The notes: generated by a model not told the origin, from the sequence alone. Counted from the stretch's first letter, positions 18,944 to 64,000 are shown. The stretch is 64,000 nt of DNA from an uncultured Verrucomicrobiales bacterium (GCA_964622095.1 CAZUPP010000008.1:15773-79772), one strand, 5' to 3'. Numbers and translations are program-made.

Positions 18944-19033
18944 AAAGACCGATGCTAGATGGCCGCCCGAGCATAACGCAATCAGGAATTTTGAAGGTGG
19001 CAGGCGGTTGATTGAAATGCTATAGAAACCGCT

Positions 19034-19753
19034 ATGACGGGGCAGTCGGCAGGTGAGGCGCAGACGAATCGGGGGTCGATACATGAGCAGATAACCGAGG
19101 CCACGCGGGAGCTGCATGATCAGGCGCACCGCCACCCCTTTATGATTGCTCTGACCGAGGGCGCTTTGGAGCCAGAGCTCTACGCGGCCTATTTGGCCCG
19201 TTTGGGAATTGTCTATCGCGCTCTGGACGACGCGGTACGCATCGCCTTGGACAATGGATCGCTTTTGCGTGCCTTGAAGCTGGACAGCCGGCTGGCGCGC
19301 AGTCAGGCGATCGCCAGTGATCTTCAACTTCTCGCCAACAGTCACGGCGCGGCGCTGAAGCTGATGGAGCGGGCCGCCCTTGAGTCGCGGGCTGCCCAAG
19401 ATTACTCCAGGCAGATCACGAAACTAGCCGGGCAGGATGAATGGGAATGGCGGCTCGCGGCGCATGCCTATGTGCGCTATTTTGCGGAACTGGCTGGTGG
19501 CTCTGCATTGAAGATTATCGTCGAGCGTATTTATGGTCCACAATTCGGGAATGTCACCGCGGTTTACCGTTTCGCGGAGATCGAAGACAAGCTTACTTAC
19601 CGCAGAGCATTTCGCGAGAAACTGGAGACCGCTGCCCGCGAAGCCGAATTACGCTTGAGCGCAGCCATGGTCGAGGAATCCCAGAAAGCCTTTGCCTTAA
19701 ATTTACAATTGTTCGATGAAATGCATCAGGTGATGTTTGAAAGGGAAAGATGA
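19034..19753 (+). CDS. heme oxygenase (HmuO/HO-1 family)
   Basis: ATRELHDQAHRHPFM (proximal His region), AHAYVRYFAELAGGSALKII (compare HxYVRYLGDLSGGQ) and VYRFAEIEDKLTYRRAFREKL. Confidence 0.8.
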   Translation: MTGQSAGEAQTNRGSIHEQITEATRELHDQAHRHPFMIALTEGALEPELYAAYLARLGIVYRALDDAVRIALDNGSLLRALKLDSRLARSQAIASDLQLLANSHGAALKLMERAALESRAAQDYSRQITKLAGQDEWEWRLAAHAYVRYFAELAGGSALKIIVERIYGPQFGNVTAVYRFAEIEDKLTYRRAFREKLETAAREAELRLSAAMVEESQKAFALNLQLFDEMHQVMFERER

Positions 19754-39340: not shown

Positions 39341-40225
39341 TTAGGCAGCCACCTCAGCCGCAATAATCTGGCTGCGAGCGCCGGTTTCAGCCAGGCGCTC
39401 CTGCGCCACCTGCAGGTAGGCCAGATCAATATCAAAGCCCACAAAGCGCTTCACCCCACAGTTCTGCGCCGCGACCGCTGAACTGCCCAGCCCCAGAAAC
39501 GGGTCCAGCACCAGATCAGCGGGTTTGAGGCCATGGATGCGTAGACAATTCTCCGCCAGCCTCACCGGGAAAGTTGCCGGATGCGGGCGGTCCCGGTCGC
39601 GAACCTGGATTGTCTCGTAGGGCACGTACCAGGTATTGCCCCGGCAGCGTCTGTCCCGGCCACCGGTATGCGCCCAGCGCCTGATGTTACTCTTGTCTGC
39701 GTAAGTCACGCCCACGGCCAGCCGGTCCAGCGGGGTCCGCCCGGTCGTGGTCAGGTGGAAGACATACTCATGGCAGTCATTGACAAAGCGCTGGCTGTTT
39801 ATCGGCTTGAAATGTCCCACGCTCAGTTCTTCGCCGTCGTCCGGCTGCTCGATGGTAATCGCCTTGATCCAGTGAAATGTGTTCTGCAGCACAAAGGGTC
39901 CGTCGCCCCCGGACAACCGTTGGACCACCTGAAGCGGCAGCAGTGGCTTGGACGGTGAACCCGCGACATTCAGAAAAAACGAACCGTTCTCACTGAGCAC
40001 ACGGGCGATCTCCGCGCCCCATTGCGTGGTCCACGCCAGATAATCCTCTTCACTCAGGCGGTCGCGATACTTGCTGTATGCGATGCCGAGGTTATAGGGC
40101 GGCGAGGTGATAACAGCTTCCACGCAACCATCCGGCAAGGCGGTCAAGCCCTCCAGGCAGTCGCAATGAAAAAGGCTGTAACCACCAGACCGCACGAGGT
40201 CACGCGACGATCTGGGCAGAGACAT
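39341..40225 (-). CDS. site-specific DNA methyltransferase, beta class (SPPY motif; N4-cytosine or N6-adenine)
   Basis: Motif IV VITSPPYNLG lies near the N-terminus. HPATFPVRLAENCL follows, and AdoMet motif I VLDPFLGLGSSAVAA lies near the C-terminus. Confidence 0.85.
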   Translation of the reverse strand: MSLPRSSRDLVRSGGYSLFHCDCLEGLTALPDGCVEAVITSPPYNLGIAYSKYRDRLSEEDYLAWTTQWGAEIARVLSENGSFFLNVAGSPSKPLLPLQVVQRLSGGDGPFVLQNTFHWIKAITIEQPDDGEELSVGHFKPINSQRFVNDCHEYVFHLTTTGRTPLDRLAVGVTYADKSNIRRWAHTGGRDRRCRGNTWYVPYETIQVRDRDRPHPATFPVRLAENCLRIHGLKPADLVLDPFLGLGSSAVAAQNCGVKRFVGFDIDLAYLQVAQERLAETGARSQIIAAEVAA

Positions 40226-40399: not shown

Positions 40400-41242
40400 T
40401 CACTCTGATGGGGAGCTGCTCGTCGCCATGCCTTCCAGCAAGTTTATCATCTTCGTGGCCATCCGCTGGCCCAGGGTCTCAGCGCTTTGGCCGTCATAGT
40501 GCCAGTGATCAAACTTTCTCAGGTCATCAGATGATGCGACCGCTGACAAGCTGATCCGGCCTGGCAGCATCGCCAGACCGTCGTTGATTGGGTTCTCGCC
40601 AGAAATCTCTCCTGCAACGAAAGCCACCTCTCCAAATTCTTCGCGAAAGGCCGCAATCATCCTCTCCAGGTTCGGCAGGTAATCCGCCTCCTTACCCTGA
40701 GCCAGATCTGTTTCACCTTGGATCCAAAGGATGCCGGACAGGGTGCCGCCGCTTTTCAGAGCTTCTTTGGTGCGCCGAACCGCTTCCTGAAAAAGTTGAC
40801 CTTCCGGCTGCCATTCCGCGGCGCTGGTCCAGCCCTTGGCGTTGACCACCAGACCAATGGCGCGCTCCGGGAAGCCCTCGCGCATCCGCTTCGCGAACCC
40901 GAAGGCAGGGCTGATCCCCTGCAGACCGATGCCCTTTCGGACCGTGGAAAATTCGTTATACGGATGGCGGGCCGGCACCCACAGCCCATTCCCGTCCAGC
41001 AGCCACACACCATTCAGCTCGCCGGTGTCACTCTCTGCGGGCATGGCACGGCCTGCCATGTTGCTCTGGCCGATACAGAGAAACACCTTCAACTCGTCCT
41101 TTGGGGGTTGAGCCTGACCGTGGAGTGTCCAGCACACCAAGAAAAAGGTCACGGGCAGAATGAGTCGTGGCCATACCGGTCCCGTCGATTTCGTCTGGGG
41201 TGAGATTTGTTTGATCACAGTGGAGGAGTCGAGCATGCTCAC
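40400..41242 (-). CDS. sialate O-acetylesterase-like carbohydrate esterase (SASA domain)
   Basis: Signal peptide, then VFLCIGQSNMAGR, WIQGETD and a DHWHY region. The start is GTG 41242 or ATG 41236. Confidence 0.8.
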   Translation of the reverse strand: MSMLDSSTVIKQISPQTKSTGPVWPRLILPVTFFLVCWTLHGQAQPPKDELKVFLCIGQSNMAGRAMPAESDTGELNGVWLLDGNGLWVPARHPYNEFSTVRKGIGLQGISPAFGFAKRMREGFPERAIGLVVNAKGWTSAAEWQPEGQLFQEAVRRTKEALKSGGTLSGILWIQGETDLAQGKEADYLPNLERMIAAFREEFGEVAFVAGEISGENPINDGLAMLPGRISLSAVASSDDLRKFDHWHYDGQSAETLGQRMATKMINLLEGMATSSSPSE

Positions 41243-46757: not shown

Positions 46758-47348
46758 TCAGGGAACTTCTTTAGTCAGAAGGAATCTCCCGGTTAAAGAA
46801 AATCCCTGCTTATCCGGATCAGAACCGGCTCCCGTGATACTGACTGAATTAATTTCAAAAAGCTTTTCCCTTGATTCAAGCGCAGCGAGCGCGTTACCCA
46901 TCGTCACAAAATTAACCGGTCCACTGTCAATTGACACCTTCACAGTGTTGAAGTCGTTTTCGAGCCCGGGCACATTGGCATCGCCCGTTTCCGAGATGGC
47001 GGTGGCTGGTTTCTCTACTCCCAGACTATTGAGTTGCCGGTTGATTCTCGGCGGCAGCCAGGTGATCGGGTCGCGCAGGGGCATTTCTTCCTCGTTGGTC
47101 AACGCGATATAATTTCGGCTTTTCTCCGCGGATTCCGCCGCCGCCTCGTTCGCGCTGCGGATCATTTGATTCGCGGTTTTGATGTTGCGCTGCATCAGTG
47201 CGATTTGCTGGTCCAGAGACTTCAATTCTTCCACCCGCGGCTTAACGAGCATCTGATGGATAAGATAAACCACCACCACGACGAGGATCACGCCGATTAA
47301 CATGCGCTTCTGTTGCTCCGGCGTCAGCCGGTCGAGACTTATCTTCAT
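46758..47348 (-). CDS. pilO: PilO-like pilus/secretion assembly protein
   Basis: Short cytoplasmic N-terminus, one TM (MLIGVILVVVVVYLI), a coiled coil (VEELKSLDQQIALMQRNIKTANQM), then a small alpha/beta domain. Third gene of the M-N-O triad. Confidence 0.6.
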   Translation of the reverse strand: MKISLDRLTPEQQKRMLIGVILVVVVVYLIHQMLVKPRVEELKSLDQQIALMQRNIKTANQMIRSANEAAAESAEKSRNYIALTNEEEMPLRDPITWLPPRINRQLNSLGVEKPATAISETGDANVPGLENDFNTVKVSIDSGPVNFVTMGNALAALESREKLFEINSVSITGAGSDPDKQGFSLTGRFLLTKEVP

Positions 47349-47378
47349 AAGGTGAATGGGGAAAACTACAAAATGAAC

Positions 47379-48050
47379 TTAGCCACCCGCCTGCGCTGTG
47401 GCTGGCGCTTCGCTGGCCAAGCCGTCCGCCGAGTCAGGTTTCTTGATCGCCACCATTTGAACTTCGAAATCCGTGAGGCCGTATTTCTCTCCCTCCAGGG
47501 AAACGGTGTTTTCTGCAGAGTAGAGCATCATGGGAAAATCTTTATTCACGTCAAAACCCAGGTCCTCCAGCCTGTTTTCAAACCTCTGGCTGAATTCGTC
47601 CGCCGTGTCATTGGCGTCTTTCTGATCCTTGCCTGCTGCACGTCCCCGGAAGGTCAGATTCAATATCTTCCCATCAGGCGTATAGGTGCCGTTGAGGGAA
47701 ATAATCTGAACCTTGGGTGGAGTCGCCTGCGCCAGTTCAGATAAAATGGGTGACCAGTAAAACCGGCTATTCACCCAATTCACCAGTGCTTCCGCGGTGG
47801 CGCTCTGCGCGAGATCTTCTTCTTTCTGAACGGCCGCTTCTTTGGAGCGAGGTTCCAGCTCCCTCCATTTCCGGTTCAAGTCCTCAAAAACATTGCGCTG
47901 GCCCTGCACCTTCGCGCCCAGCAGCATCCACCACGCAATCATTCCCATGCAAATCACCAGGGCTAAAAGCAGGCCGATCTTAATCGGATCCAGTTTTCTT
48001 TCCAGATCCGCCTGCTGTTTGGGAAATAGTAGATTTACTTCGAGCGCCAT
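47379..48050 (-). CDS. pilN: PilN-like pilus/secretion assembly protein
   Basis: N-terminal EVNLLFPKQQ (PilN INLLP-type motif), one TM (IGLLLALVICMGMIAWWML), a coiled coil and a periplasmic domain. Confidence 0.65.
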   Translation of the reverse strand: MALEVNLLFPKQQADLERKLDPIKIGLLLALVICMGMIAWWMLLGAKVQGQRNVFEDLNRKWRELEPRSKEAAVQKEEDLAQSATAEALVNWVNSRFYWSPILSELAQATPPKVQIISLNGTYTPDGKILNLTFRGRAAGKDQKDANDTADEFSQRFENRLEDLGFDVNKDFPMMLYSAENTVSLEGEKYGLTDFEVQMVAIKKPDSADGLASEAPATAQAGG

Positions 48051-48079
48051 ATTGCCTCCGAAAAAAAGAAAACGATCGG

Positions 48080-49159
48080 TCAGTGAGAGCTGCCTGTGAC
48101 TTGAAGTTGCTCCAGCGCGACCCCGGCGGCCACGGTGAGATTGATAAAGTCCGCCTGAAACGCTTCTTCCTGTCTCTTCGGTAGCTTTCTCTCACATAAC
48201 TCCGGGGGAAGCGGATCCCATAGCTCACACGGGATATCTACAAAACCCACCAGAGCCTGCAGAAGTCCCTGGGACGCCGCCATGCCGCCGGAGATTAATA
48301 CTTTGCTGATACTCTGGTCCTTGAGATTCTCGAAAAAACCGGCGGAATTCATGATCTCCCGGCTCAGGCCGGCAATATAGTTTTCTGCCCGCTGAACTAC
48401 TTCACGGTCGTCATTCTGCAGGCTGCCGATCACCTCCTCCGCACTCATCCCACTGTCCGCAGCCAGATAACTGATCAGTCCCTGGCCGCCATACTCCACC
48501 TTGCGGACTACGAACAGCTCTCCAAATGCGCCAATAATCAGATTGGTTTCCAGATGTCCTATATCCACCAGCATAAAGGCGCTGTTGTAGAAGGTTTGCT
48601 TCTGGGCAAACTGAAAGGCGTTAAAGATAGACACCGGCGCGGCCTGAAGTGATTTTGGATTGATGCGCTCTTTCAGGGTCGCGTTCCAGACCATTTCCAC
48701 CGTCGCCGCCGGCAGACCCGCCACCAGGTATTGCCGCTTGCGCTTGGTCCTCGAGCCGCTGGCGGATTCGGCCTCGGCCGCTTCGATCTTCGCGGGAGTC
48801 TCATTGAGCACGGTATCAAGGACGTAGCTGGTCACGTCCTGATCCAGGATGGCACTGCCGTTCATGCGCAGGGCATCACGTAGAATCGGTTTGGGCGTTT
48901 CGGATTGCTCGATGTTCTTGATGATCGCCTCAGGCTGCGTAATCGCCAAGCCGATCGTCTTGGAAGGAGCACCTACCCGTTTGATGGATTGCTTCAGGTA
49001 AAGAGAAAGCTCCTGCGCCGTGCGAATTTCACCGTCCACGAGCAGGTTGCTGTAACCGGTCACCGTCACACGATCCTTGCCTTTGCGCTGAAGGGAGATC
49101 GCCTTAATCGAATGATGACCGATATCAATGCCGGTCGCCGTGCTGGGAGCTTTTGCCAT
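48080..49159 (-). CDS. pilM: PilM-like actin-fold pilus assembly protein
   Basis: TGIDIGHHSIKAISL, MLVDIGHLETNLII and ISGGMAASQGL are the FtsA/PilM-type ASKHA motifs. 359 aa. Confidence 0.8.
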   Translation of the reverse strand: MAKAPSTATGIDIGHHSIKAISLQRKGKDRVTVTGYSNLLVDGEIRTAQELSLYLKQSIKRVGAPSKTIGLAITQPEAIIKNIEQSETPKPILRDALRMNGSAILDQDVTSYVLDTVLNETPAKIEAAEAESASGSRTKRKRQYLVAGLPAATVEMVWNATLKERINPKSLQAAPVSIFNAFQFAQKQTFYNSAFMLVDIGHLETNLIIGAFGELFVVRKVEYGGQGLISYLAADSGMSAEEVIGSLQNDDREVVQRAENYIAGLSREIMNSAGFFENLKDQSISKVLISGGMAASQGLLQALVGFVDIPCELWDPLPPELCERKLPKRQEEAFQADFINLTVAAGVALEQLQVTGSSH

Positions 49160-52097: not shown

Positions 52098-53057
52098 ATG
52101 ATCTTCAATCAGTTAGGCCGGACCGGCCTCAAAATCTCCGCCCTTTCCTACGGCACCTGGCAGACCTTCGGCGAAACCGTGGAGCTTCCGGAGGCTGATG
52201 CCATTGTCTCGAAAGCATGGGACCTGGGTATCCGCTGCTTCGATGGCGCCGAAGCTTATGCCTTGGGCAAGGCGGATGAAATGATGGGGAATGTCCTTAA
52301 GAACAAGAACTGGCTTCGCGAAGAATATGTTCTGACCGGCAAATGCATCCGCGGCGCGGATGGTCCTCAGCACCACGGCATCTCCCGGAAGCGGCTGGTT
52401 TCATGCTGTGAGCGTACCCTCAAAAAGTATCATACGGATTATCTGGACCTGTTTTTCTGCCACCGCCCGGATGGCGTGACCCCCCCGGAAGAGATCGTCA
52501 TTACGATGAACGCCCTGATTCAGCAGGGCAAAATCCTTTACTGGGGGACAAGCGAATTTGAGCCCATGACCATCGAGCGGTTGTGGCAGTTTGCTGGCAG
52601 GCATGGCCTCGCCGGTCCCGTCGTTGAGCAGACCGGCTATAACCTGCTCAGCCGCGACCGGATGGAAAAGGATCTCCTCCCGCTCTTCGAAAAATGGGGC
52701 ATGGGCACGACGGTTTACTCACCCATCGCCGTGGGGCAACTGAGCGGGAAATACAATAACGGCATCCCGGAAGGGACACGCCTGGCCGATCACGAATGGC
52801 TGAGGAACCAATTGACGCCGCAGCGGCTCCAGCAATTGCAGAATCTCCAAAGGGTGGCGGATGAAATGGGCCAGCCCATGGCAACCATGGCCCTGGCCTG
52901 GGTCCTGAAGAAGCCGAACGTTTCTACCGCGATCACTGGGGCGCGCCGGGCCGATCAAGTGGAACGTAATCTGGGCGCAATCGAACTGGCGGAGAAGCTT
53001 ACGACGGAAGACCTCACAAGAATCGAGGCTGCACTCAACGTCGAAGCCGCCATTTAA
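52098..53057 (+). CDS. aldo/keto reductase (Kv-beta / YajO-like)
   Basis: LGRTGLKISALSYGTW, FDGAEAYALGKADEMMG, DLFFCHRPD, YWGTSEF. Start moved to ATG 52098. Confidence 0.85.
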   Translation: MIFNQLGRTGLKISALSYGTWQTFGETVELPEADAIVSKAWDLGIRCFDGAEAYALGKADEMMGNVLKNKNWLREEYVLTGKCIRGADGPQHHGISRKRLVSCCERTLKKYHTDYLDLFFCHRPDGVTPPEEIVITMNALIQQGKILYWGTSEFEPMTIERLWQFAGRHGLAGPVVEQTGYNLLSRDRMEKDLLPLFEKWGMGTTVYSPIAVGQLSGKYNNGIPEGTRLADHEWLRNQLTPQRLQQLQNLQRVADEMGQPMATMALAWVLKKPNVSTAITGARRADQVERNLGAIELAEKLTTEDLTRIEAALNVEAAI

Positions 53058-53791
53058 CCTGCCTCCAGCAGCCTGCAAAAGGTCATTGCGTCCCACTGCC
53101 CGCGCACGGCATGAGTTCCGAGATGCACATAGTTCAGGCGCGAGCCTGCCCGGGCAAGGATGAGCCGAGAGTAAGCGCCGAAAGGAGCGCCCATGCCCAT
53201 CGCGGCCCAGATCAGTCCGCTTTCGCTGGCGGCCTCCGCAAAGCGGAGCAGCTCATTGAGTTCGCGAAGCGCCACGGTGGTGGTGGCGGCCTTGAAGATA
53301 TCCACGGGCAGATCGCGGAGAGCGGTCCGGGCGCAATCCAGCAACCGGTCGCTGGCCGGTGTGCCCGTTAAATCATGCACAGAACACACGACGCGGATCC
53401 CCTGCGATCTCAGATCAGTTGCCAGTCCGGCAAACCTGGCCCCGACCTGCGGATCAATCAATGAAGCCAGCTCCATATCTGCCAGGCTGGCAAAAGGAGC
53501 GAAGCGGCAAAGAACCTCCACCCTCTGTAGGTCGCTCAGTCCGGCGGACGCGCCCCCTTCATCGGCCCGGCGGCAGGTAATGAGAAATCGTGGCGGTCCA
53601 CCCGGTGAAAGCTCCTGGAGCAGATCCTCCACTTCATCCAGATCCGCCGCCAGGCAATCAAGGCGCAGCTCCAGGAGAGAACAGGCCCGGATCATGGGAG
53701 CATCCGGGGCCGAGACGAGAAGGTGCAGATTCTCGCGGGTGTGAATGACCCCGACGATTTCACCCTGACGGTTTTCCGCGCTACCTTCCAT
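53054..53791 (-). CDS. aroD: type I 3-dehydroquinate dehydratase
   Basis: Motif-by-motif match to E. coli AroD: ELRLDCL/EWRVDHY, FLITCRRADEGG/LLFTFRSAKEGG, VVCSVHDLTGTP/VVMSNHDFHKTP, DIFKAATT/DIPKIALM (Schiff-base Lys), MGMGAPFGAYSRL/MSMAKTGVISRL. Confidence 0.75.
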   Translation of the reverse strand: MEGSAENRQGEIVGVIHTRENLHLLVSAPDAPMIRACSLLELRLDCLAADLDEVEDLLQELSPGGPPRFLITCRRADEGGASAGLSDLQRVEVLCRFAPFASLADMELASLIDPQVGARFAGLATDLRSQGIRVVCSVHDLTGTPASDRLLDCARTALRDLPVDIFKAATTTVALRELNELLRFAEAASESGLIWAAMGMGAPFGAYSRLILARAGSRLNYVHLGTHAVRGQWDAMTFCRLLEAG

Positions 53792-53934
53792 TTGCTGTGC
53801 GATACTCTTTAAAATTTATGCCACCCGGCCGGTAAGAAGAAGGTTCCGGGTGATATAAACAGGTTTCTTTTGACTCACTGCACCACCGCGGTCAGAACTC
53901 TCGCCGGTTTCCGCTGATTACATTTCTGGTCCCC

Positions 53935-55329
53935 ATGCTTCGTCGAACGCGAGAGCTTAATCAACAACTCTACCAGCTCTTGGACGGCCTGCTTCTGGGG
54001 TTGGCCTTTTTCCTCGCGCATGCCGTCCGCTATTACCTGACACCTTACACGGAGCTTTTCACGGCACGCATCGCTCCGTTTCAGAGTTTCCTCTGGATCA
54101 TCTTCATCATCGTTCCGTTCGGGCCTATTTTCCTGGAACTGCAGGGATTCTACCGGCAGCAACTGGGGCGCGGCCTGGAGCGTGCCATCTCCCAGATCAT
54201 TATTGCCATGCTGGGTCTTGCCCTGGTGCTGGGCATCTGCATTCTGCTGCTTCGTTACCCGGCGCCGCCCCGTTCAGTATCCGTCTTTTTTGCTGGGGCT
54301 GCCGTCTTTCTGCTTCTGGCCAGGCATCTCTTTGCCCGCTGGCTTTACCGGCACCGCACCCGTAAAGAAGCCCTTCGCGAGACCATCGTGCTGGCCGGCA
54401 CAGATGAGGACATCGCGTCCTTCGAGAACGAGATGGATTCAGAGTTCTATAGCCAATTCCGCGTGGTTGACCGGGTGGATATCCAACGCCAGCCCACCTC
54501 GGATCTGGTCGAGGTTCTCCACGAGTATTCCGTCAGCAAGGTCATCTTCGTCGCCGGTCACAGTTACCTCGGCAAAGTGGAGGAGGCCATCGGCGCCTGC
54601 GAGATCGAAGGGGTGGAGGTGTGGCTTCTGGCCAGCTTTATCACCACAAAGATCGCCCGGCCCCAGTTTGAGAGCCTCTTCGGCCACCCACTCATGGTCT
54701 TCCGGTCGACTCCGGAATCATCCTGGAGCTTGTGGATCAAGGAATTAATGGACCGGGTGGGATCGCTCGGGCTGATCATCGCGCTTTCGCCCCTGCTGAT
54801 CACCGTTTCTATCCTCGTTCGGCTAACCTCGCCGGGCCCTGCGATTTTCAAGCAGAAGCGGGCTGGCCTGCACGGTCGCGCCTTCACCATGTTTAAATTC
54901 CGGTCGATGTATCAGGACGCAGAACAGCGGAAAGCGGAGCTGGACGCGCTCAACCAGATGAGTGGACCGGTCTTTAAAATGGAAAATGATCCCCGGATCA
55001 CGGCCCTCGGCCGATTCATCCGGCGCACAAGCATTGATGAATTGCCGCAGCTTTTCAACGTGCTCCGGGGGGAAATGAGTCTGGTCGGGCCACGCCCGCT
55101 GCCGCTCTACGAAGTTGCGCAATTCGGAGACCGCGCGCAGCGGCGGCGTCTCAGTGTGAAGCCGGGTCTGACCTGTCTCTGGCAGATCAGTGGCCGCAAT
55201 AAGGTGACGGACTTTGAGGAGTGGGTCCGGCTGGACCTCGAATACATCGATCGCTGGTCCCTCTGGCTGGACATCAAAATCCTCCTGCGCACGATTCCTG
55301 CTGTGCTCTTTGGATCAGGAGCCCGTTAA
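53935..55329 (+). CDS. polyprenyl-phosphate glycosyl-1-phosphate transferase (WbaP/EpsB-type sugar transferase)
   Basis: N-terminal TM bundle. C-terminal bacterial sugar transferase domain: GPAIFKQKRAGLHGRAFTMFKFRSM, DPRIT..GRFIRRTSIDELPQLFNVLRGEMSLVGPRP. Confidence 0.85.
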   Translation: MLRRTRELNQQLYQLLDGLLLGLAFFLAHAVRYYLTPYTELFTARIAPFQSFLWIIFIIVPFGPIFLELQGFYRQQLGRGLERAISQIIIAMLGLALVLGICILLLRYPAPPRSVSVFFAGAAVFLLLARHLFARWLYRHRTRKEALRETIVLAGTDEDIASFENEMDSEFYSQFRVVDRVDIQRQPTSDLVEVLHEYSVSKVIFVAGHSYLGKVEEAIGACEIEGVEVWLLASFITTKIARPQFESLFGHPLMVFRSTPESSWSLWIKELMDRVGSLGLIIALSPLLITVSILVRLTSPGPAIFKQKRAGLHGRAFTMFKFRSMYQDAEQRKAELDALNQMSGPVFKMENDPRITALGRFIRRTSIDELPQLFNVLRGEMSLVGPRPLPLYEVAQFGDRAQRRRLSVKPGLTCLWQISGRNKVTDFEEWVRLDLEYIDRWSLWLDIKILLRTIPAVLFGSGAR

Positions 55330-55510
55330 CCTGAATCCACTGTTAAGCACTATCCTTCACCACCCGCGCGTGTTTCGCCCGTCCAGTCACCCGTCGATTT
55401 GTCCCAGACTGCCTCGCTTTGTATTGTGCTCCTGTTTCAGTCTGTGCTAGCCATGGCCCGCCTTTCGACCGACGCTGTTCTGGCCGCCGCGCCCTGCCCA
55501 CGGCCAAACC

Positions 55511-56548
55511 ATGTCTAATCTCATCCATCTGATGAATCCGGCTTCTTCTGACAGTTCAAAGCATGAAAAACCGGTCTCCGTTATCACCGGCGGAGCTGGT
55601 TTTCTGGGATCACATCTCAGTGAGCGGCTGCTCGAAGCCGGGCATCAGGTCATCGTTTTTGACAGCCTGCTCACCGGTAAGCTTTCCAACATCGAACATC
55701 TGGGTGACCGCCCGGATTTTCGTTACATTCGCTATAATGTGACGAACTACATCATGGTCTCCGGACCGGTTGATTACGTCTTTCACTTTGCTTCTCCGGC
55801 AAGCCCGGTGGACTACCTGGAGCATCCCATTCCGACCCTGAAAGTCGGCGGGCTCGGCACCCACAATGCCCTCGGCCTCGCCAAGGATAAGGGCGCCACC
55901 TTTCTTCTGGCCTCCACTTCAGAGGTTTACGGTGATCCGCTCGTCCACCCTCAGAAGGAAGACTACTGGGGCAATGTCAATCCGATCGGCCCTCGCGGAG
56001 TCTATGATGAGGCCAAGCGTTTCGCCGAAGCGATCACTATGGCCTACCACCGCTTTCATGGGGTGGATACCAAGATTGTCCGTATCTTTAACACCTACGG
56101 CCCGCGCATGCGCCTCCATGATGGGCGGGTCGTGCCCACCTTCATCGCCCAGGCTCTCAATGGTCAGCCCCTCAGTGTTTATGGAGATGGCAGCCAGACC
56201 CGCAGCTTCTGTTATGTCAGTGACCTGATCGAGGGGATTTTTCGCCTCGCCATGAGTGACTATCACGAGCCGGTAAACATCGGTAACCCCCATGAAATGA
56301 CCATTCTTGAGTTTGCCAAGGCCATCATCCGCATCACCGGTCAGGACGTGCCGATCCAGTTCAAGCCGCTCCCGCAGGATGATCCCAAGATTCGTCAGCC
56401 GGATATCTCCCTGGCACGGCGTATCCTGAACTGGGATGTCCAGGTGGACTTTGAAACCGGTATCCGCCGGACGGTTGAATTCTTCAAATCCCGCCCGGAA
56501 GAGGTGCGGGCCTTTGCCGAAGCCAATCAGCTTAAGGCCAGCGCCTGA
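55511..56548 (+). CDS. UDP-glucuronate decarboxylase (UDP-xylose synthase, UXS)
   Basis: [44 protein letters not shown] (YxxxK), [22 protein letters not shown]. Confidence 0.9.
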
Positions 56549-56699: not shown

Positions 56700-57317
56700 A
56701 TGAAACCAAAGCTCTTCCCCACTGCTTACCTGCTAATCGGACTTGCCGCTTTCGGGCTGATCAATCTTACCACTCAGGCTCAAGCTCAGGCCCAGCAGCC
56801 AAGAATCGAGATCAAAGAGATCTCCGTTACCAACATCACTTCACCGGATTACACTTTCACCAAGTCCGAGGACTTTCGTTCCCGCGGGGGTGAATGGCTC
56901 CTGATCGAGGTGGAACTCGAGAACAAGGAGGAACTCGTGTCAGAGATTGCCGTGCGCTTCCACGTCGTGACCGAAAAAATGGCCAACCGCTCGGAAGGTC
57001 CTCAGTATTTTACGGGAGAGGTGACCTACATCAATCTGTTCAAGAACCGGTCTCTCTTCGGTTCTATGTATCTGCCTCCGAACTCTCTGAAGTTCGTCAA
57101 TGAGGGCCGGGAAGTGAAGGCGAATGATGTGGCCGAAGTGGGCGTTGAGATTCTCTACCAGGGCGCGATTATTGCTCAGGCCAACATGAAGGACAACAAT
57201 CGAGGGCCTTGGTGGCAATCCATGCAACCGCTTCAGGGGCACATGCTGAACAAAAACCAGACGCCGTTTGCGCCCCTCTATTGGGACCGCTATGAGCAGA
57301 TCAAGGCGACGCCCTGA
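56700..57317 (+). CDS. secreted hypothetical protein, first gene of the pilus-like cluster
   Basis: Signal peptide MKPKLFPTAYLLIGLAAFGLINLTTQAQAQ, then a beta-rich 175-aa domain. It occupies the position that Amuc_1102 has in the Akkermansia cluster (synteny recalled from memory, no sequence comparison made). Start moved to ATG 56700. Confidence 0.6.
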   Translation: MKPKLFPTAYLLIGLAAFGLINLTTQAQAQAQQPRIEIKEISVTNITSPDYTFTKSEDFRSRGGEWLLIEVELENKEELVSEIAVRFHVVTEKMANRSEGPQYFTGEVTYINLFKNRSLFGSMYLPPNSLKFVNEGREVKANDVAEVGVEILYQGAIIAQANMKDNNRGPWWQSMQPLQGHMLNKNQTPFAPLYWDRYEQIKATP

Positions 57318-57531
57318 GTGATTGCTCGGGTTAGGGAGAACCGCCGTTCGCCGGAGGTTTTTCCGGCCAAGTGCAGAATTGATATTGCGCAGGAGCGGCA
57401 CGCCTGCCACGGTTTGGGTCTTCCGGGGCTGAACAAGCGGAAGCAGGCTGATTCAGGGCCGATGCCTCCCCTCGCTCCGGAGATTTCTAGTGCTCGATCA
57501 TTAACCTGTTTCCCTTTCAAGACCTTCCCAG

Positions 57532-59307
57532 ATGGCAACCGGTAACGCGATTACCTGTATCAATCTCGGTACTCAGTCCCTAAACCTGGCTACCTTTGTG
57601 CCTACCGGTTCCGGCGGGCTGACGCTGACCGGATACCACTCCACCCAGTTGCTGGCGGATCCCAACGCGGAGACCAGCCACATCCCGCAATTGCGGCTGG
57701 GACTGCGTGACCTGGCGACCCAGAGCGGAACGAAAGGGCGGCCAGTAAACTATTGCCTGCGCGGGGAGGCGGTCTTCAGCCGGTTTGTCCGGCTGCCCCG
57801 GCTGGACAGCAGCAAGGTGCAGCAGATCGTCACCTTTGAAGCTCAGCAGAACATCCCTTTTCCCTTAAAGGAAGTGGTGTGGGACTACCAGCTCGTCCAG
57901 CGCGGGCAGGAAGCGGAGATGGAGGTGGTGCTGGTGGCGATCAAGAAAGATCTCCTCAATGACGTAAATGAAGCGGTCGAGGACGCCGGGCTGGAAACAG
58001 AACTGGTGGACATTGCGCCGATGGCCCTGCTCAACGCTTTCCGGTTCAACTACTATGACGTCGACCAATGCTCCCTGGTCATTGACGTTGGCGCGCGCTC
58101 GACCAACCTGGCCTTCAGCGAGCCCGGCCTCATCTGGCTGCGCAGCTTTCGCCTCGGAGGAAATGACATCACCCAGGCCGTTTCCCGTGAGTTCAAGGAA
58201 GATTTTGCCGCCGCGGAGGAACGCAAAAAACGGGACGGCTTCGTGCATCTCGGCGGTGCTTATGAAGAGCCGGAAGATCCGGAGATCGCTACCCTGGGCA
58301 AGGTTATCCGCAATGCGATGACCCGCTTTCACACAGAGATCTCCCGCTCCATCAATTTCTACCGGTCCCAGCAGAAAGGCTCCAAGCCGGAGCGCATTTA
58401 CCTGGCAGGCAGCGGTTCAAGCCTGCCGTACATGACGGAGTTCTTTTCCGAAAAGTTCCAGGTCACCTGCGAATACTTCAATCCGCTGCGAAACGTGAAG
58501 CTGGGCAAGAACGTGCCTCAGGACGAACTGCTCGCGCAGCCCTACACCTTGGGAGAACTCGTCGGGGTAGCCCTGCGGCAGACCGGGCCGTGCCCGATGG
58601 AGATCAATCTTCAGCCGGACGCTGTCGCCGCTCGCAAGGAGCTGGGCTCCCGACGGCCCTTTTTCATCGCCGCCTCCATCTGCCTGCTGCTGGCCCTTGG
58701 CGGGTATTGGTTTTTCCTCACGCAGGGCAAGAAAAAAGCGGAAGCCGAACTGGCCGATCTTCAGCCCAAAGTTGCCGAATTCGAGCGCTATGCCCAGCAG
58801 ATCCGCGGTGCCCAAAGTGAACTGGACCGTCTGGAAAGGTTGGCTGCCCCGTATCTCCGCGCCAGTGAGCAGCCCGGCTATTGGGCTCGTGTTTTTGAGG
58901 ATCTCAATTCTCATCTGCCGGCTGAAGGCATCTGGCTGACCTCTGTCACTCCAGCACACGGAGAAAACCCCCTCTTGCCGGAAGACAACCAGGCGATCGC
59001 CAGCCTGTTGGAGGAAGAAAAGCCGGCATCCGCCCAGCCAGGGCGGCGCGGGGTAGAGTCAGAGGAAGAACAGGGGGTTTTTGTCGAGGCCCTGCTGGTA
59101 GAAGGGCTGGTTCTTGAAGGGTCCGAGCGCAAAGTGGACCTGGAGTTTTTGCCTGCCCTGCAGCGGGATTCAGAGATCTTCAATGTCACCAAGGAGGATG
59201 AGGATGAAATCATCGTCACCCCGGTGCAGCAGTCGCAAAAGCGGGACCGGTTCGCCATGCAGTTTCGGCTGCGTTTGCCGTTAAAGGATAAACTGCGCCT
59301 TGAATAG
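57532..59307 (+). CDS. PilM-PilN fusion protein
   Basis: N-terminal ~355 aa have the PilM/FtsA-type actin fold (INLGTQSLNLATF, LVIDVGARSTNLAF, YLAGSGSSLPYM). Next comes EINLQPD (PilN motif), a TM (FFIAASICLLLALGGYWFFL), a coiled coil and a periplasmic domain. Confidence 0.75.
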   Translation: MATGNAITCINLGTQSLNLATFVPTGSGGLTLTGYHSTQLLADPNAETSHIPQLRLGLRDLATQSGTKGRPVNYCLRGEAVFSRFVRLPRLDSSKVQQIVTFEAQQNIPFPLKEVVWDYQLVQRGQEAEMEVVLVAIKKDLLNDVNEAVEDAGLETELVDIAPMALLNAFRFNYYDVDQCSLVIDVGARSTNLAFSEPGLIWLRSFRLGGNDITQAVSREFKEDFAAAEERKKRDGFVHLGGAYEEPEDPEIATLGKVIRNAMTRFHTEISRSINFYRSQQKGSKPERIYLAGSGSSLPYMTEFFSEKFQVTCEYFNPLRNVKLGKNVPQDELLAQPYTLGELVGVALRQTGPCPMEINLQPDAVAARKELGSRRPFFIAASICLLLALGGYWFFLTQGKKKAEAELADLQPKVAEFERYAQQIRGAQSELDRLERLAAPYLRASEQPGYWARVFEDLNSHLPAEGIWLTSVTPAHGENPLLPEDNQAIASLLEEEKPASAQPGRRGVESEEEQGVFVEALLVEGLVLEGSERKVDLEFLPALQRDSEIFNVTKEDEDEIIVTPVQQSQKRDRFAMQFRLRLPLKDKLRLE

Positions 59308-59330
59308 ATTGTATTTCAGGTTGTTCACTC

Positions 59331-60323
59331 ATGGATTGGATTAAACAGAACCCCTTTATTGCTGGCCTGGCCGGCGTCACCCTGGTGATCGCCGGGGTGC
59401 TCATCTTCCTGATCATGCAGGCGGGCGGAGCGCTTCAGGAGGCAGAATCCGAGTATGCCACCCAAAAGAACAATCATGACGGCCTGGTGACCGCGCGGAT
59501 TTATCCCAGCAGGGACAGCGTGGAAGCACTCGAGGCGCAGCAGGACGAAGTGCGTGAACGCCTCCGTGAACTGCGTGAAGCCTTTTCCTCAAAGCAAGTT
59601 GCGCCTGAACCCCTCAGCCCGGCGGATCTGGTCAGCCTCATTGTGGATTCAGTCAATGCCACCTACAGTTTGGCCGCGGAACGCGGGGTCAACATGCCCG
59701 CGAGGGAGGAGTTTTTCCTTGGCTTTAACCGTTACGAAGAGTCGCCCCCGCGCTTGGAGGCCGTGGATGAGCTGAGCGTCCTGCTGCAAGTCATCAAGAG
59801 CGTCGCGGAGCTGCTCATGGAAGAACAGATTGATGAGCTGATTTCCATTTCCCGGGTTGAACTCGCGGTGGAGAACGGCGCTCCCGAGGAGGAGGAAGAA
59901 GAGCCGCAGGGAAGACGCGGCCGCGGCCGAAGGGCGCCTGTGGTAGAGAAGATGCCGGAGCAGTTGGAACGCTGGACCTTTATTGTGCGTTTCAAGTCCA
60001 CCCAGGAAGCGCTGCAAAGGGTGATCAACAGCCTTCAGGCGATGGATCAACTTCTGGTCACTCAGCTGATTGCGGTCACCAATGAGAGCAAAGAAGGTCC
60101 TCTCCGGGAACAGACGGAGAGTGGCGAAGTCCGCTTTGGTGAGGACGGACTTCCCTTGCCGCCTGAGGAAGAAGATGCTGAGGAGGGCGAGCCTTCAGTC
60201 CGGGTGGTGCTGGGCCGTGAAAAAGTCGAGTCAGCTCTGCGCATTCAACTGATCCGCCTGGCACAGAGTGAAGAAGAATTCGAAGCCACCCTGGCCGGCA
60301 CATCCCAGAAACCCCGGCGGTAA
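59331..60323 (+). CDS. membrane-anchored coiled-coil protein, Amuc_1100-like / PilO-position
   Basis: MDWIKQNPFIAGLAGVTLVIAGVLIFLI anchor, a coiled coil, then an alpha/beta region. 330 aa. Segments such as LGFNRYEE...VIKSVAELL, RWTFIVRFKSTQEALQRVINSLQAMDQLLVTQLIAVTNE and GREKVESALRIQLIRL line up with my recollection of Amuc_1100 (317 aa). Confidence 0.65.
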   Translation: MDWIKQNPFIAGLAGVTLVIAGVLIFLIMQAGGALQEAESEYATQKNNHDGLVTARIYPSRDSVEALEAQQDEVRERLRELREAFSSKQVAPEPLSPADLVSLIVDSVNATYSLAAERGVNMPAREEFFLGFNRYEESPPRLEAVDELSVLLQVIKSVAELLMEEQIDELISISRVELAVENGAPEEEEEEPQGRRGRGRRAPVVEKMPEQLERWTFIVRFKSTQEALQRVINSLQAMDQLLVTQLIAVTNESKEGPLREQTESGEVRFGEDGLPLPPEEEDAEEGEPSVRVVLGREKVESALRIQLIRLAQSEEEFEATLAGTSQKPRR

Positions 60324-60352
60324 CGCCATCTACGCCCTACCTTTGATCAGCG

Positions 60353-61402
60353 ATGGACTGGATAAAGAAACGTTACGACCGCTTTACCCTTTTGCTGGCG
60401 GCCATCATCCTGCTGGCCATGGCAGCTTTTGTCTACCTGCGGACGGGATCCTTCGGACAACAGTTCGAGCTGCAGACGGGCAATCCTAACGCCCAGCCGC
60501 CAACGAAGGATACCGAGGCCCTGAACGCGGCGCTCAACCAACTGCAGCAGCCGACTCCCTGGGAAGCGCGTGAAGAGGCTGACCCCAGTCTGTTCCGGGC
60601 AAAAACTCACCTTGTTCTGCCGGATGAAAACAAGCTGGTGAAAGTCGATCCGGAATCGGATATCACGATTTATGATCCCATCACCCTGCGCTGGATTCTG
60701 AAATACGATCTGCCTCTGGAAGATGACAGGCTGCCGCGGATGGATCCGGATGACGATGATTTCACGAATCAGGAAGAATTCCTCGCGGAAACCGATCCAA
60801 CCGATCCGGCAAGCCACCCGCCTTACACACGGCGGCTTTTTGTGAAGGAGGTCATTTCCAATCCGGATTTCTTTACCTTCGCGGCAAAACCGGCCGCGGA
60901 CACTTTTCAGATCAACCGGGAAGGGCGCCGGTCTCAATTTGTTCAGACCGGCTCCATCATTGAGGGCAGCGCCTGGAAGCTGATCGAATATACTGAAAAG
61001 ATGACGGAACGTCCGGGACGCGCTCCCCTCGATGAATCGGAGTTGACCCTGGAGAACACCGTGACCAGTGAGACCGCCACCCTGGTCAAAGGGAAGCGGA
61101 CAAACCTGGGGGATTTCACAGTGGTGCTGGAATACCTTTGGAAAGGGGATCAGGAATTTCGGCTCAAAGAGGACGGCACCTTCAATCTGCCGCCGGATAA
61201 CGACTCTTTCGTTGTTCAGGAAATCCAGCAAGATCCGCCGCTCGCCAAAGTTCAGCGTCAGGACGAATCCGGCAATCCCCAGGGCGAAGTGCTGAGCATT
61301 CGCGAACAGCAGCCGGGCGATATGCCTGAGCGTCTGAGCGGCAGTGCGGATGAAGGCGGCGAGGGCGAGTTCCCGGAAGGAGACGGAACCGCGGAGGGCT
61401 GA
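60353..61402 (+). CDS. membrane-anchored hypothetical protein with a thrombospondin-type-3-like acidic motif
   Basis: MDWIKKRYDRFTLLLAAIILLAMAAFVYL anchor; DPDDDDFTNQEEFLAETDPTDP (calcium-binding-type motif); acidic tail. It occupies the Amuc_1099 position. Confidence 0.6.
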   Translation: MDWIKKRYDRFTLLLAAIILLAMAAFVYLRTGSFGQQFELQTGNPNAQPPTKDTEALNAALNQLQQPTPWEAREEADPSLFRAKTHLVLPDENKLVKVDPESDITIYDPITLRWILKYDLPLEDDRLPRMDPDDDDFTNQEEFLAETDPTDPASHPPYTRRLFVKEVISNPDFFTFAAKPAADTFQINREGRRSQFVQTGSIIEGSAWKLIEYTEKMTERPGRAPLDESELTLENTVTSETATLVKGKRTNLGDFTVVLEYLWKGDQEFRLKEDGTFNLPPDNDSFVVQEIQQDPPLAKVQRQDESGNPQGEVLSIREQQPGDMPERLSGSADEGGEGEFPEGDGTAEG

Positions 61403-61672
61403 ACGGACGCTGCTGCCTTCGGTTCCGCAAATTTCTGGCCGCAAACCTGAAAAAAGGCGGTCATCTACCTTGACACACCCAAAGAAAAATCTGACACCCT
61501 TTGATAAATGAGCGTTCAACGGAGGGAGAGTGCTCCCGACCCGCAGATCGCTGACCCCCACCAGGGCTGACCGAGACCCCGTTTTCCTGATTTTCATAAA
61601 AGAAGCTTCAGGAGCGGATGTCAGTTCCTGGCCGCAGAATGATTCCACTGGCTAAGGCTACCACCCTACCAC

Positions 61673-64000
61673 ATGACCCAGCACAAAACTATCCTTATCG
61701 TTTTACGGCACCTTCTCTTGGGTGTGCTCATCTTCACTGGGATTCTCCAAGCCTCAGCGGTTGATCCGCTCATCCAGCAGCTGGCTGAAAGAGAAATCCA
61801 GCGCCGTCAGCAGATGGCCGTTCTGGCCCAGGAAAATATGGCGGAAGGCGCCGAAGCCTACAACGAGGGTGACTATGAACGGGCCGTCGGGCTTTACCGG
61901 GGTGCGGTTGAAATGCTGCCGGATTCTGAGCGGACCGGAGCCCTGCGTGAACAGGCGATCAGCGACATGGTGGACAGCGTTCTCCAACTGACTGAACAGC
62001 GCATTGCGGAAGCGCGCTGGGCGGATGCGGAAACTCTGGTCGACTTTGCTCTGGAATTCCGTCCTGAAGATGAACGGGCGCTGTCCTTGAAAGACAAGCT
62101 GATCGACCCTGAGTATTTCCCCAAACAACGCACACCGCGCTATGTAGCCCAGGTGCAGGACGTGAAGCGTCTGCTGCAGGAAGGACGCGGTTTTTATCTC
62201 GACGGTCAATATGATCTCGCCATCAAGCGCTGTGATCAGGTGCTGAATATCGATCCTTATAACGCCGCGGCTTACCGCTTGAAGGAAGAGGTCTGGTCGA
62301 CCATTCGCCGGGAAAATGTCCCGGCAGTTTACAATAACACCCGGGCCGAGCTGCTGAGTCAGGTGGGTATGGCTTGGGGCACACCGGTTAATGAGTACGG
62401 CGAGGTGCGCGGTTTTGGAGATGAAGGCCCGGGAGAGGAAATGGGTGAACGCGAGCGGATCAACCGACTACTCGATACGCTCATCGTTCCAACGGTGGAA
62501 CTGAATGACGCCACCGTAGAGGAGGCCCTGGAGTTTCTTCGCTTCCAATCCATCCAGCTTGATCCGGACGGGCAGGGGATCGACTTCGTGTTGCGCCTCG
62601 ATGAAGGCGGCTCGAGCGGTGGTGGAGCTCCTGCGCCGGCTGCAGATGAATCGATCGACTTCGATGACTTTGGTTCCTCAGATGACGCGGGTGCGGCTCC
62701 AGCTGCTTCCGGAGGGAGCGTTTCTGCTCTGCCTCGCATCGATCTGCGTCTGCGCAACGCCCCACTCCGTGAAGTGCTGCGATATGTCACGGAGATCGCC
62801 GGTCTGGAATTTATCGTGGAAGACTTCGCGGTTCTTATTGTACCGCAAGGCGCGGACACGGCGGCTCGCGGCCGTGTGATTACCAAGACCATTCGTGTCC
62901 CACCTGACTTCATCACGCGGGCAGTTGGCTCCGGCGGCGGCGGCGGTGACGCCAGCGGCGGCGGTGGTGGCGGATTTGGTTTCGGTGAGCCTTCCGGCGA
63001 CGGGGGAAGCGAGCCTTCTCTGTCTGGCCCGTCTGCCACGGCGGAAGAAGCTTTACGCCAGCTGGGAATCAATCTGCCTCCTGCCGGTGGAGCAACTTTC
63101 GACCCCGGCACGGCCACCCTGACCGTTACCGCAACTTCTGCTCAGATCCGGCAAATTGAGGCGATCGCGCAGCAGATGCAAAGTCAGGTCGCCAAGCAGG
63201 TGAAGATCGAAGCGAAATTCCTTGAGGTGACGCAGGATAACTTTACCGAGCTTGGGTTTGACTGGCTCCTCGGCGCGGCCAACGTGCCCGGTAACAACGG
63301 TGTCTTCTTCTCCGGAGGTACGGAGGGCTTTACCAATCCGCCTCTGGATCAGTCCACTTTTCCCTTCAATGCTCCCGGTGCGGGGGCTCCGGTGGGAACC
63401 AACCCGGTCACAGGTGGTCTTCGCTCCGGAAATGTGGGTATCGCCAGCGACTCAATTGACTCGCTGCTTTTCCCCGCCCCAGCCCGTGACGGACTGCTGA
63501 TCTCTCCGGGCATCTTCTCGGTGGCTGGTGTATTCACGGATCCCCAGTTTCAGGTGGTGGTTCGTGCCTTGGATCAGAAACGTGCGGTCGATCTGCTTTC
63601 CGCTCCATCGGTTACGACCAAGAGCGGTCAGCGAGCGGTTATTGAGGTTAACCGGGAATTCCGGTTTCCAGTCGAGTTCGACCCACCCCAGATTCCACAG
63701 GATTTCGGAAGTATTGGTGGAACAGCCCTTGTGCCTGGTACTCTGGGGACTCCTCCCAGTTCCTTCCCGGTCACCCCAACCACACCTGTCACCTTTGAGA
63801 CGAAAAACACAGGGGTGACTTTGGAAGTCGATCCAACAGTCGGCGCTGATAATGTGACGATTGATCTCAATCTGATCCCGGAAGTCATCGAATTCGAGGG
63901 CTTCATCAACTACGGAAGTCCCATTCAGACCTTTTCCACGAATGCGATTGGCGTTGCCACGCCCATTGTTATCACTCCCAACGTGATCAACCAGCCGGTG
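61673..64000 (+). CDS. secretin (GspD/PilQ family), C-terminus beyond the window
   Basis: Not in the ORF track because there is no stop in the window. My translation from ATG 61673 is MTQHKTILIVLRHLLLGVLIFTGILQASA (signal), then TPR-like helices, N-domains (LRLRNAPLREVLRYVTEIAGLEFIV) and the secretin core (KIEAKFLEVTQDNFTELGFDW, QVVVRALDQKRAVDLLSAPSVTTKSGQRAVIEV, TGVTLEVDPTVGADNVTIDL). Confidence 0.8.
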   Translation, partial: MTQHKTILIVLRHLLLGVLIFTGILQASAVDPLIQQLAEREIQRRQQMAVLAQENMAEGAEAYNEGDYERAVGLYRGAVEMLPDSERTGALREQAISDMVDSVLQLTEQRIAEARWADAETLVDFALEFRPEDERALSLKDKLIDPEYFPKQRTPRYVAQVQDVKRLLQEGRGFYLDGQYDLAIKRCDQVLNIDPYNAAAYRLKEEVWSTIRRENVPAVYNNTRAELLSQVGMAWGTPVNEYGEVRGFGDEGPGEEMGERERINRLLDTLIVPTVELNDATVEEALEFLRFQSIQLDPDGQGIDFVLRLDEGGSSGGGAPAPAADESIDFDDFGSSDDAGAAPAASGGSVSALPRIDLRLRNAPLREVLRYVTEIAGLEFIVEDFAVLIVPQGADTAARGRVITKTIRVPPDFITRAVGSGGGGGDASGGGGGGFGFGEPSGDGGSEPSLSGPSATAEEALRQLGINLPPAGGATFDPGTATLTVTATSAQIRQIEAIAQQMQSQVAKQVKIEAKFLEVTQDNFTELGFDWLLGAANVPGNNGVFFSGGTEGFTNPPLDQSTFPFNAPGAGAPVGTNPVTGGLRSGNVGIASDSIDSLLFPAPARDGLLISPGIFSVAGVFTDPQFQVVVRALDQKRAVDLLSAPSVTTKSGQRAVIEVNREFRFPVEFDPPQIPQDFGSIGGTALVPGTLGTPPSSFPVTPTTPVTFETKNTGVTLEVDPTVGADNVTIDLNLIPEVIEFEGFINYGSPIQTFSTNAIGVATPIVITPNVINQPV

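Follow-up and report, generated by a model that had tools for sequence, protein, structure and literature searches.

A divergent member of the Akkermansia MUL2 locus family in an uncultured Verrucomicrobiales bacterium: a probable envelope scaffold and secretin of a type IV filament machine

The closest described counterpart of the gene cluster examined in the present study is found in Akkermansia muciniphila, in which the Amuc_1102-1098 cluster encodes abundant envelope proteins, ranking among the most abundant of this organism, and has been associated with possible pili-like structures (Ottman 2017). A review treated the same genes as a cluster for type IV pili in which Amuc_1098 represents PilQ. 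The locus is presently named MUL2 and is described as important for mucin acquisition and as conserved in all Akkermansia species. A 2026 paper reported that the synteny of MUL2 is kept in aquatic Akkermansiaceae and other Verrucomicrobiales, with coaE, rho, a dehydroquinase, and a secretin as neighbors, and tied the locus to attachment and fucoidan uptake. The structure of Amuc_1100 has been reported to be PilO/PilN-like. In addition, PilC of A. muciniphila (Amuc_1584) is expressed from a separate locus, and further pilin-like genes, needed for colonization, are located elsewhere. As a probiotic effector, Amuc_1100 has been studied widely; it is commonly described as a pilus-like protein of the outer membrane, and the machine that contains it has been linked to the acquisition of mucin and fucoidan.

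Herein, we describe a cluster of five genes (G1 to G5) at positions 56700 to 64000 of a stretch of 64,000 nucleotides (the window) from an uncultured Verrucomicrobiales bacterium (GCA_964622095.1, CAZUPP010000008.1:15773-79772). As judged from its sequence, this cluster is a divergent orthologue of the A. muciniphila MUL2 locus, and the kind of system it represents has already been described. The five genes probably encode the envelope-spanning scaffold of a type IV filament machine together with its secretin; the motor would be encoded elsewhere, and the product would be a fibre for glycan capture. A preliminary description of this DNA had stated that the function of such a machine was not established, a view overtaken by the literature, which already contains both the type IV pili cluster (Ottman 2017 and the review) and the role of MUL2 in mucin acquisition. 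The system is known, curated, and partly characterized genetically and structurally, and the new contribution is a divergent member with comparative detail, not a new kind of system.

Gene family identity and conservation of the cluster

The five genes lie on the + strand: G1 (56700..57317, 205 aa), G2 (57532..59307, 591 aa), G3 (59331..60323, 330 aa), G4 (60353..61402, 349 aa), and G5 (61673..64000), which is cut by the window end and encodes 776 aa within the window. They are separated by gaps of 214, 23, 29, and 270 bp, respectively, and the coordinates and strand previously given for these co-directional open reading frames (ORFs) were reproduced exactly. A near-identical metagenome contig (L001), which runs past the window end, was used for the full-length G5 protein and the downstream genes. 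The two copies of G5 (61673-64000 in the window, 11321-13975 in L001) are not identical: the Logan contig L001 carries an additional Gly in a poly-Gly linker, and several residues are substituted, e.g. EVNREFRF versus QVNREFRY; because of these differences, L001 (samples SRR6462987-SRR6462999) is assigned, at the sequence level, to a closely related strain.

Family membership was observed directly, as each protein matches its own curated NCBIfam equivalog model. G1 scored 104.5 bits (E 5e-30) against Amuc_1102_rel (NF042424, cutoff 55 bits), G3 scored 197.3 bits (E 4e-58) against Amuc_1100_fam (NF038287, cutoff 180), and G4 scored 171.8 bits (E 3e-50) against Amuc_1099_fam (NF042425, cutoff 50). 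For Amuc_1098_fam (NF042912, cutoff 750), the window-truncated copy of G5 gave 664.5 bits and the full-length L001 protein 813.7 bits. G2 was aligned over its full length (1-588 versus 1-605 of 608) with Amuc_1101_fam (NF045709, cutoff 650), with 636.4 bits, slightly under that cutoff, and E 6e-191. The gene order is also the same as in A. muciniphila, and the match to Amuc_1102-Amuc_1098 given in the preliminary description is thereby confirmed.

Synteny was likewise read directly from related genomes. A scan with the G4 family, restricted to one genome per species, recovered 102 relatives, and 80 loci were kept. All five genes were present in the same order in 55 of the 61 loci with enough flanking sequence, so that the conservation of gene order extends outside this genome to several orders and phyla of the Planctomycetes-Verrucomicrobia-Chlamydiae (PVC) group. 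The hosts were mostly Chthoniobacterales, with further loci in Verrucomicrobiales, in Akkermansiaceae, and in metagenome-assembled genomes (MAGs) labelled Kiritimatiellia, Lentisphaerae, and Blastochloridaceae. The lineage of the window, which is absent from the scanned genomes, is divergent: its five proteins showed 28-52% identity to those of the nearest loci, and its Rho about 55%. L126, the closest relative, has a G2 homologue of 55% identity, and synteny there is identical from the dehydroquinase to the RNase D-like gene. Variant forms of the cluster were also observed. One Chthoniobacteraceae clade (L006, L008, and L009; about 7.1-7.4 kb) is without an Amuc_1102 homologue at the locus, and its gap between UXS, the epimerase gene described below, and G2 is only 215-290 bp; in three Lentisphaerales loci (L070, L082, and L083), neither G1 nor G3 was detectable, with a gap of ~1 kb at the position of G3.

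No intrinsic terminator and no convincing promoter were found in the gaps between G1 and G5, the RNA structure of the 270-nt G4-G5 spacer was not unusual (z -0.77), and the window contained no Rfam families or tRNAs. An ORF of 433 aa runs antisense to G4 (60347-61648, - strand) and also covers the G4-G5 spacer; this ORF is almost certainly spurious, because it overlaps the conserved G4 and no gene was called there in L001.

Domain architecture from the inner membrane to the secretin

The domain identities were also observed directly. In G2, residues 1-350 form a cytoplasmic actin-like PilM domain, which matched PilM_2 (PF11104) at 9e-35 and passed the cutoff of TIGR01175 (PilM; 152.4 bits, cutoff 133). 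This domain is followed by a PilN-type linker and transmembrane helix (58597..58722, + strand), delimited by sequence reading and homologue alignment: the linker MEINLQP occupies residues 356-362 and leads through a basic stretch into the helix at about residues 376-397. The linker motif is kept in 112 of 120 homologues and aligns with the INLLP N-terminus of canonical PilN. Beyond the helix, a long coiled coil precedes a periplasmic domain with two alpha-beta-beta units, and the AlphaFold2 model of the C-terminal part (predicted local distance difference test, pLDDT, 81) has the topology H-E-E/H-E-E. The reference ORFs behind the canonical PilN, PilO, and PilP profiles were verified by Pfam (PF05137, PF04350, and PF04351, respectively). 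In comparison with the canonical PilN alignment, the C-terminal profile of G2 reached 95.1% by hhalign (E 3e-8, 144 columns), and it matched M. xanthus PilN in PDB 3JC8 at E 2e-4, while Pfam gave no PilN match for G2. Both halves of the protein therefore bear out its earlier label as a PilM-PilN fusion.

G3 is bitopic, with an N-terminal MDWIK peptide and transmembrane helix, a coiled coil, a PilO/PilN-like core, and an acidic insert. The crystal structures of Amuc_1100 (6KNY/6LAD) were matched at E 1e-5 with G3 alone and at E 1e-42 with a family profile of 39 sequences. The match to canonical PilO was weak (hhalign 38%, E 3e-4, 110 columns), above a control comparison of canonical PilN with PilO (25% over 18 columns), and no Pfam PilO (PF04350) match was obtained for G3. 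Membership in the Amuc_1100 family agrees with the anchored coiled-coil protein initially described. As to PilN/PilO-like folds in the middle proteins, G2 carries a PilN-like module and G3 belongs to a family with a reported PilO/PilN-like structure.

G4 is also bitopic and consists of an MDWIK peptide with a long transmembrane helix, a calcium-type loop, a two-part beta-rich region of ~160 residues, and an acidic disordered tail; the AlphaFold2 model has a pLDDT of 85.7. The predicted calcium-binding loop DPDDDDFTNQEEF (60743..60781, + strand; residues 131-143) has the TSP3/EF-hand-type pattern DxDxDG-F-x-N-x-E-E-F, in agreement with the D-rich calcium-type motif noticed before. Among 47 sequences, D131, F137, and E142 are invariant and D133 and D135 nearly so (at least 90%), and all five positions are invariant in alignments of 11 and 26 sequences. 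When PDB sequences were searched, G4 alone had no match, and the G4 profile found only EF-hand loops (E 0.008). PF18884 (TSP3_bac) is annotated on several members of the G4 family and also on TSP3-repeat proteins outside it, and the loop segment is repeated up to 46 times in giant repeat proteins. When the representatives were searched exhaustively with the G4 profile, these giant TSP3-repeat proteins dominated the matches, and no clean family count was obtained.

The N-termini of G3 and G4 (59331-59360 and 60353-60382, respectively; + strand) share a peptide, M-[DN]-W-I-K-x-N, which precedes the transmembrane helix in 48 of 73 G3 homologues and 66 of 79 G4 homologues (loci L005-L084). The two families aligned by hhalign at 92% over 36 columns. 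Since the conservation reaches the extreme N-terminus, the sequences suggest that these N-termini serve as signal anchors that are not cleaved off and that both bind the same partner in the cytoplasm. If the anchors are retained, the homologues of Amuc_1100 would be inner-membrane and not outer-membrane proteins.

The first and last proteins of the cluster carry signal peptides. The N-terminus of G1, read directly, is a type I (Sec-type) signal peptide with AQA at its end; it contains no class III prepilin signal. G1 matched the structure of Amuc_1102 (PDB 7DSZ) at E 7e-10, and its precomputed annotation is PF28178. On this sequence basis, G1 is a Sec-exported immunoglobulin (Ig)-like beta protein of the Amuc_1102 family (MUL2A-like). 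The full-length secretin has 884 aa in L001 and comprises a signal peptide, a TPR region (about 50-215), an STN/N0-like domain (348-389), an N1 domain (458-503), Gly-rich linkers, and a split secretin domain. Pfam matched TPR, STN, and Secretin_N in G5, and PF00263 at 1e-31 on the full-length protein, which upholds the secretin label. In 19 of 61 loci, mainly of Chthoniobacter and Terrimicrobiaceae, two tandem full-length secretins follow the Amuc_1099 homologue (L013, L015, L020, L029, L030, L033, L038, L039, L041, L044, L047, L049, L053, L058, L059, L069, L071, L076, and L081), at about 10.9-16.3 kb in most of these loci; the window and L001 have one.

The type of secretin bears on two other explanations of the cluster. 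Against classical models, G5 scored 147 bits for GspD, 125 for MshL, 112.9 for PilQ, and 85 for HofQ, every score being under its cutoff (351 for GspD TIGR02517, 284 for PilQ TIGR02515, and 554 for HofQ), and no AMIN-domain match was found in Pfam and NCBIfam scans of the protein. That GspD is the best of these models, together with the lack of an AMIN match, might indicate the assembly platform of a type II secretion system (T2SS), in which G2 would be GspL, G3 GspM, G4 a transmembrane-anchored GspC, and G5 GspD, and which would export glycoside hydrolases, sulfatases, and enzymes of that sort; the failure of mutants on complex glycans would then be a defect of secretion and not of uptake. 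The fused PilM-PilN protein and the transmembrane-anchored, non-lipoprotein fourth protein resemble the layout of GspL and GspC, and a sulfatase and a SASA carbohydrate esterase are encoded in the window. However, the PilM domain passes the cutoff of the type IV pilus PilM model, the GspD score is far under its own cutoff, the GspM match is insignificant (E 0.04), and neither GspL nor GspC was matched; moreover, the publications read MUL2 as pilus-like, in attachment and uptake. We regard T2SS-like enzyme export as a serious rival of clearly lower probability, which is compatible with the pilus reading because different type IV filament systems can share a single secretin.

A conduit for DNA uptake (competence) of the HofMNOPQ or Thermus PilMNOWQ type would also have the gene order PilM-N-O-X-secretin. 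In Thermus, the fourth gene likewise encodes a transmembrane-anchored, family-specific protein, and weak HofQ matches were observed in the C-terminal secretin region of G5. Given the distance of the HofQ score from its cutoff, the abundance of these proteins, which in A. muciniphila is among the highest in the envelope, and a phenotype reported as glycan acquisition, this explanation is very improbable.

Motor genes, neighboring genes, and a second PilM/PilN/PilO-like trio

The absence of motor genes in cis was observed directly. No gene for a pilin, ATPase, platform protein, or prepilin peptidase was found in the 64-kb window or in the 3.6 kb downstream of it in L001. Within the window, Pfam searches of about 53 of the greedy-selected ORFs of at least 100 aa and motif scans of all six frames, aimed at prepilin leader sequences and at the Walker A motif of T2SS_E, agreed on this absence, which had been noted at the outset. 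Downstream of the secretin, L001 contains coaE (dephospho-CoA kinase), rho, and a 3'-5' exonuclease/HRDC (RNase D-like) gene, so that no pilus operon, which would have made this an ordinary pilus or secretion locus, follows the secretin. Within 10 kb on each side of the 80 related loci, no conserved pilin or ATPase gene was observed, only sporadic single pilin-like genes. In a few relatives, isolated genes of the prepilin-type cleavage/methylation family (TIGR02532 above cutoff) are located 7-8 kb downstream of the cluster, at 17326-18096 (- strand) in L009, 18694-19245 in L029, and 18411-18983 in L033; the L009 protein, in addition, matches the protein C/D families of the 'Verru_Chthon cassette' below threshold.

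From this absence, the preliminary description had suggested that the cluster may be an inner-membrane-to-secretin scaffold with an unknown substrate and energy source, and had called a link to the export of surface glycans or glycoproteins conceivable. On this reading, the cluster would be an autonomous conduit working without pilin, ATPase, or platform, with a glycan or glycoprotein made through the upstream sugar transferase and epimerase as a possible substrate. Besides the lack of motor and pilin genes in the window and around the related loci, the Sec-type export of G1, which is not a prepilin, fits such a conduit. However, pilMNOPQ operons are normally separate from pilA/pilBCD, and for this reason neither an unknown substrate nor an unknown energy source follows from the absence in cis. 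In A. muciniphila, PilC (Amuc_1584) and pilin-like proteins are encoded at other loci, and relatives with the cluster encode prepilin-type proteins. To our knowledge, moreover, the conserved PilM domain has no role besides engaging the PilB/PilT/PilC motor of type IVa pili, which also counts against a conduit of this kind.

The neighboring genes bear on the same proposal. Upstream of the cluster, Pfam identified a 3-dehydroquinate dehydratase (DHQase, aroD-like; 53054-53791, - strand), a WbaP-type sugar transferase (53935-55329, + strand), and a UDP-xylose synthase-like epimerase (UXS; 55511-56548, + strand). WbaP and UXS are co-directional with the cluster and adjacent to it in many loci, UXS being directly upstream in 46 of 62 related loci; WbaP was found in 20 of 53 and DHQase in 18 of 53, and coaE and rho follow the cluster in 41 of 61. 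In contrast, in the Akkermansiaceae loci the dehydroquinase stands immediately before G1, and both WbaP and UXS are missing. The adjacency of these two genes is weak evidence because the conserved neighborhood includes the housekeeping genes aroD, coaE, and rho. With the published phenotype being acquisition and not export, the suggested link to the export of surface glycans or glycoproteins is weakened, and the autonomous conduit is very unlikely, also in view of the A. muciniphila capsule locus lying elsewhere. As capsule-locus genes, WbaP and UXS were considered and rejected, at least for A. muciniphila and on the basis of cps1 alone, the described capsule locus of this species, which is at Amuc_2077-2098. 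As a whole, the arrangement DHQase (- strand), WbaP, UXS, the five genes, coaE, rho, and the RNase D-like gene (53054-56548 and L001 14036-17660) is common to several orders, in the style of a housekeeping super-operon.

A second, split PilM/PilN/PilO-like trio, absent from the preliminary description, was observed at 46758-49159 (- strand), 7.5 kb upstream of the cluster. The PilM-like gene (48080-49159, - strand) matched PilM_2 at 5e-18, and its protein gave 72 bits with TIGR01175 versus 152 bits for the PilM domain of G2. The PilN-like protein (47379-48050, - strand) has the N-terminus EVNLLFP and aligned at 70% with canonical PilN and at 95% with the C-terminal half of G2, and the PilO-like protein (46758-47348, - strand) matched canonical PilO at 4e-4 by phmmer. 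No PilP, secretin, pilin, or ATPase gene was found beside the trio. A metagenome scan with the PilM of the trio found only distant (22-27%) canonical pilMNOPQ loci, which do not explain it; the trio may provide a further platform in the inner membrane and share the secretin of the cluster.

Several other genes were observed in the window. A sulfatase (17588-19399) and a sialate O-acetylesterase-like (SASA) protein (40400-41242) are consistent with a glycan-degrading lifestyle. A leucine-rich-repeat protein of 679 aa (23855-25894), an N6/N4 DNA methyltransferase (39341-40225), and a Uma2-family endonuclease (2670-3224) are also encoded.

Proposed organization and comparison with known systems

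Herein, we propose the following organization for the type IV filament machine. First, the PilM domain of G2 would lie under the inner membrane and be joined covalently, via the INLxP peptide and the transmembrane helix, to the periplasmic PilN module. We infer that G3 pairs with this module as a PilO-like partner and that G4, at the position of PilP/GspC, bridges to the periplasmic N-domains of the secretin. Second, G5 would form the outer-membrane channel, with the fused TPR region as a built-in pilotin, and G1 would be an exported Ig-like accessory. Third, filament subunits, prepilin peptidase, PilC, and PilB/PilT-type ATPases would be encoded elsewhere in this genome. The output of the machine would be a surface fibre or pseudopilus that captures complex glycans for delivery to, or passage across, the outer membrane, in line with the reports on MUL2.

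Several results weigh against this organization. The G2 score is 14 bits short of the Amuc_1101 equivalog cutoff, and Foldseek searches with the C-terminal model of G2 did not recover PilN/PilO structures but only generic ferredoxin-like/ACT-type folds at E 0.58 or worse. It is gene position alone that gives G4 its bridging role: a Foldseek search of its model against the PDB returned nothing significant, GspC included (best E 0.028, template modelling score below 0.15), and comparison with the validated PilP profile gave 1.4% by hhalign, i.e. no PilP relationship. Unlike the PilP lipoprotein (PF04351), G4 has a transmembrane anchor and no lipobox, and the identification of G4 as PilP was rejected on these three grounds. 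The motor genes are absent in cis, and the presence of the trio in the window leaves the secretin without a unique set of partners. In addition, the mucin/glycan phenotype has been reported for A. muciniphila only and is cited second-hand.

A broader, and in our judgment unlikely, proposal is that the cluster, rather than passively aligning a conventional pilus, is a vertically inherited, PVC-wide gate for glycan uptake. In such a gate, the secretin would serve the inward transport of polysaccharides ("selfish" uptake), G1 and the calcium/TSP3 module of G4 would handle the glycan, and the shared cytoplasmic peptide M-[DN]-W-I-K-x-N would tie both G3 and G4 to the PilM ring; the split PilM/PilN/PilO platform 7.5 kb away might draw on this secretin as well. 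For the filament machine itself, which remains the preferred explanation, the divergent environmental copy sharpens the list of parts: a PilM-PilN fusion, a PilO-like protein, a calcium-loop protein that is not PilP, and a TPR-secretin. It also identifies the cluster as a core syntenic feature well beyond Akkermansiaceae, strong in Chthoniobacterales and present in Kiritimatiellia- and Lentisphaerae-labelled MAGs.

Among the known systems, MUL2 has the same five families in the same order and strand, with the dehydroquinase, coaE, and rho in common in the flanks, and G1 and G3 are homologous to the solved structures of Amuc_1102 and Amuc_1100. The differences are that the sequences are very divergent, with single-sequence alignments to the Amuc_1100 and Amuc_1102 structures at E 1e-5 and 7e-10, respectively, that WbaP and UXS sit here between the dehydroquinase and G1, which is not the case in Akkermansiaceae loci, and that the host is not Akkermansia, the nearest loci (28-52% identity over the five proteins) being of the Chthoniobacterales type.

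In common with the type IVa PilMNOPQ systems of P. aeruginosa and M. xanthus (3JC8), the cluster has a PilM above the cutoff, the motif, transmembrane helix, coiled coil, and core of PilN, a PilO-like third protein, a secretin in the last position, and an operon apart from the pilin/ATPase genes. In contrast to them, PilM and PilN are fused, an extra Ig-like gene comes first, the fourth protein is transmembrane-anchored with a TSP3 calcium loop and is not PilP, and a TPR region stands in the N-terminal part of the secretin, which yields no AMIN match and fails the PilQ cutoff (112.9 versus 284 bits). With regard to the T2SS (GspC, GspL, GspM, and GspD), no significant GspL, GspM, or GspC match was obtained, GspD reached 147 versus 351 bits, and no gspE-K genes are adjacent; by analogy, however, a single polypeptide would join the cytoplasmic actin-like and periplasmic ferredoxin-like domains as in GspL, its bitopic partner would correspond to GspM, and the transmembrane-anchored protein before the secretin to GspC. 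Finally, in the PilM-PilN-PilO-PilW-PilQ operon of Thermus thermophilus, a lineage-specific membrane-anchored fourth protein also replaces PilP, and the operon, which is apart from the pilin/ATPase genes and encodes PilM and PilN as separate proteins, serves both pili and DNA uptake.

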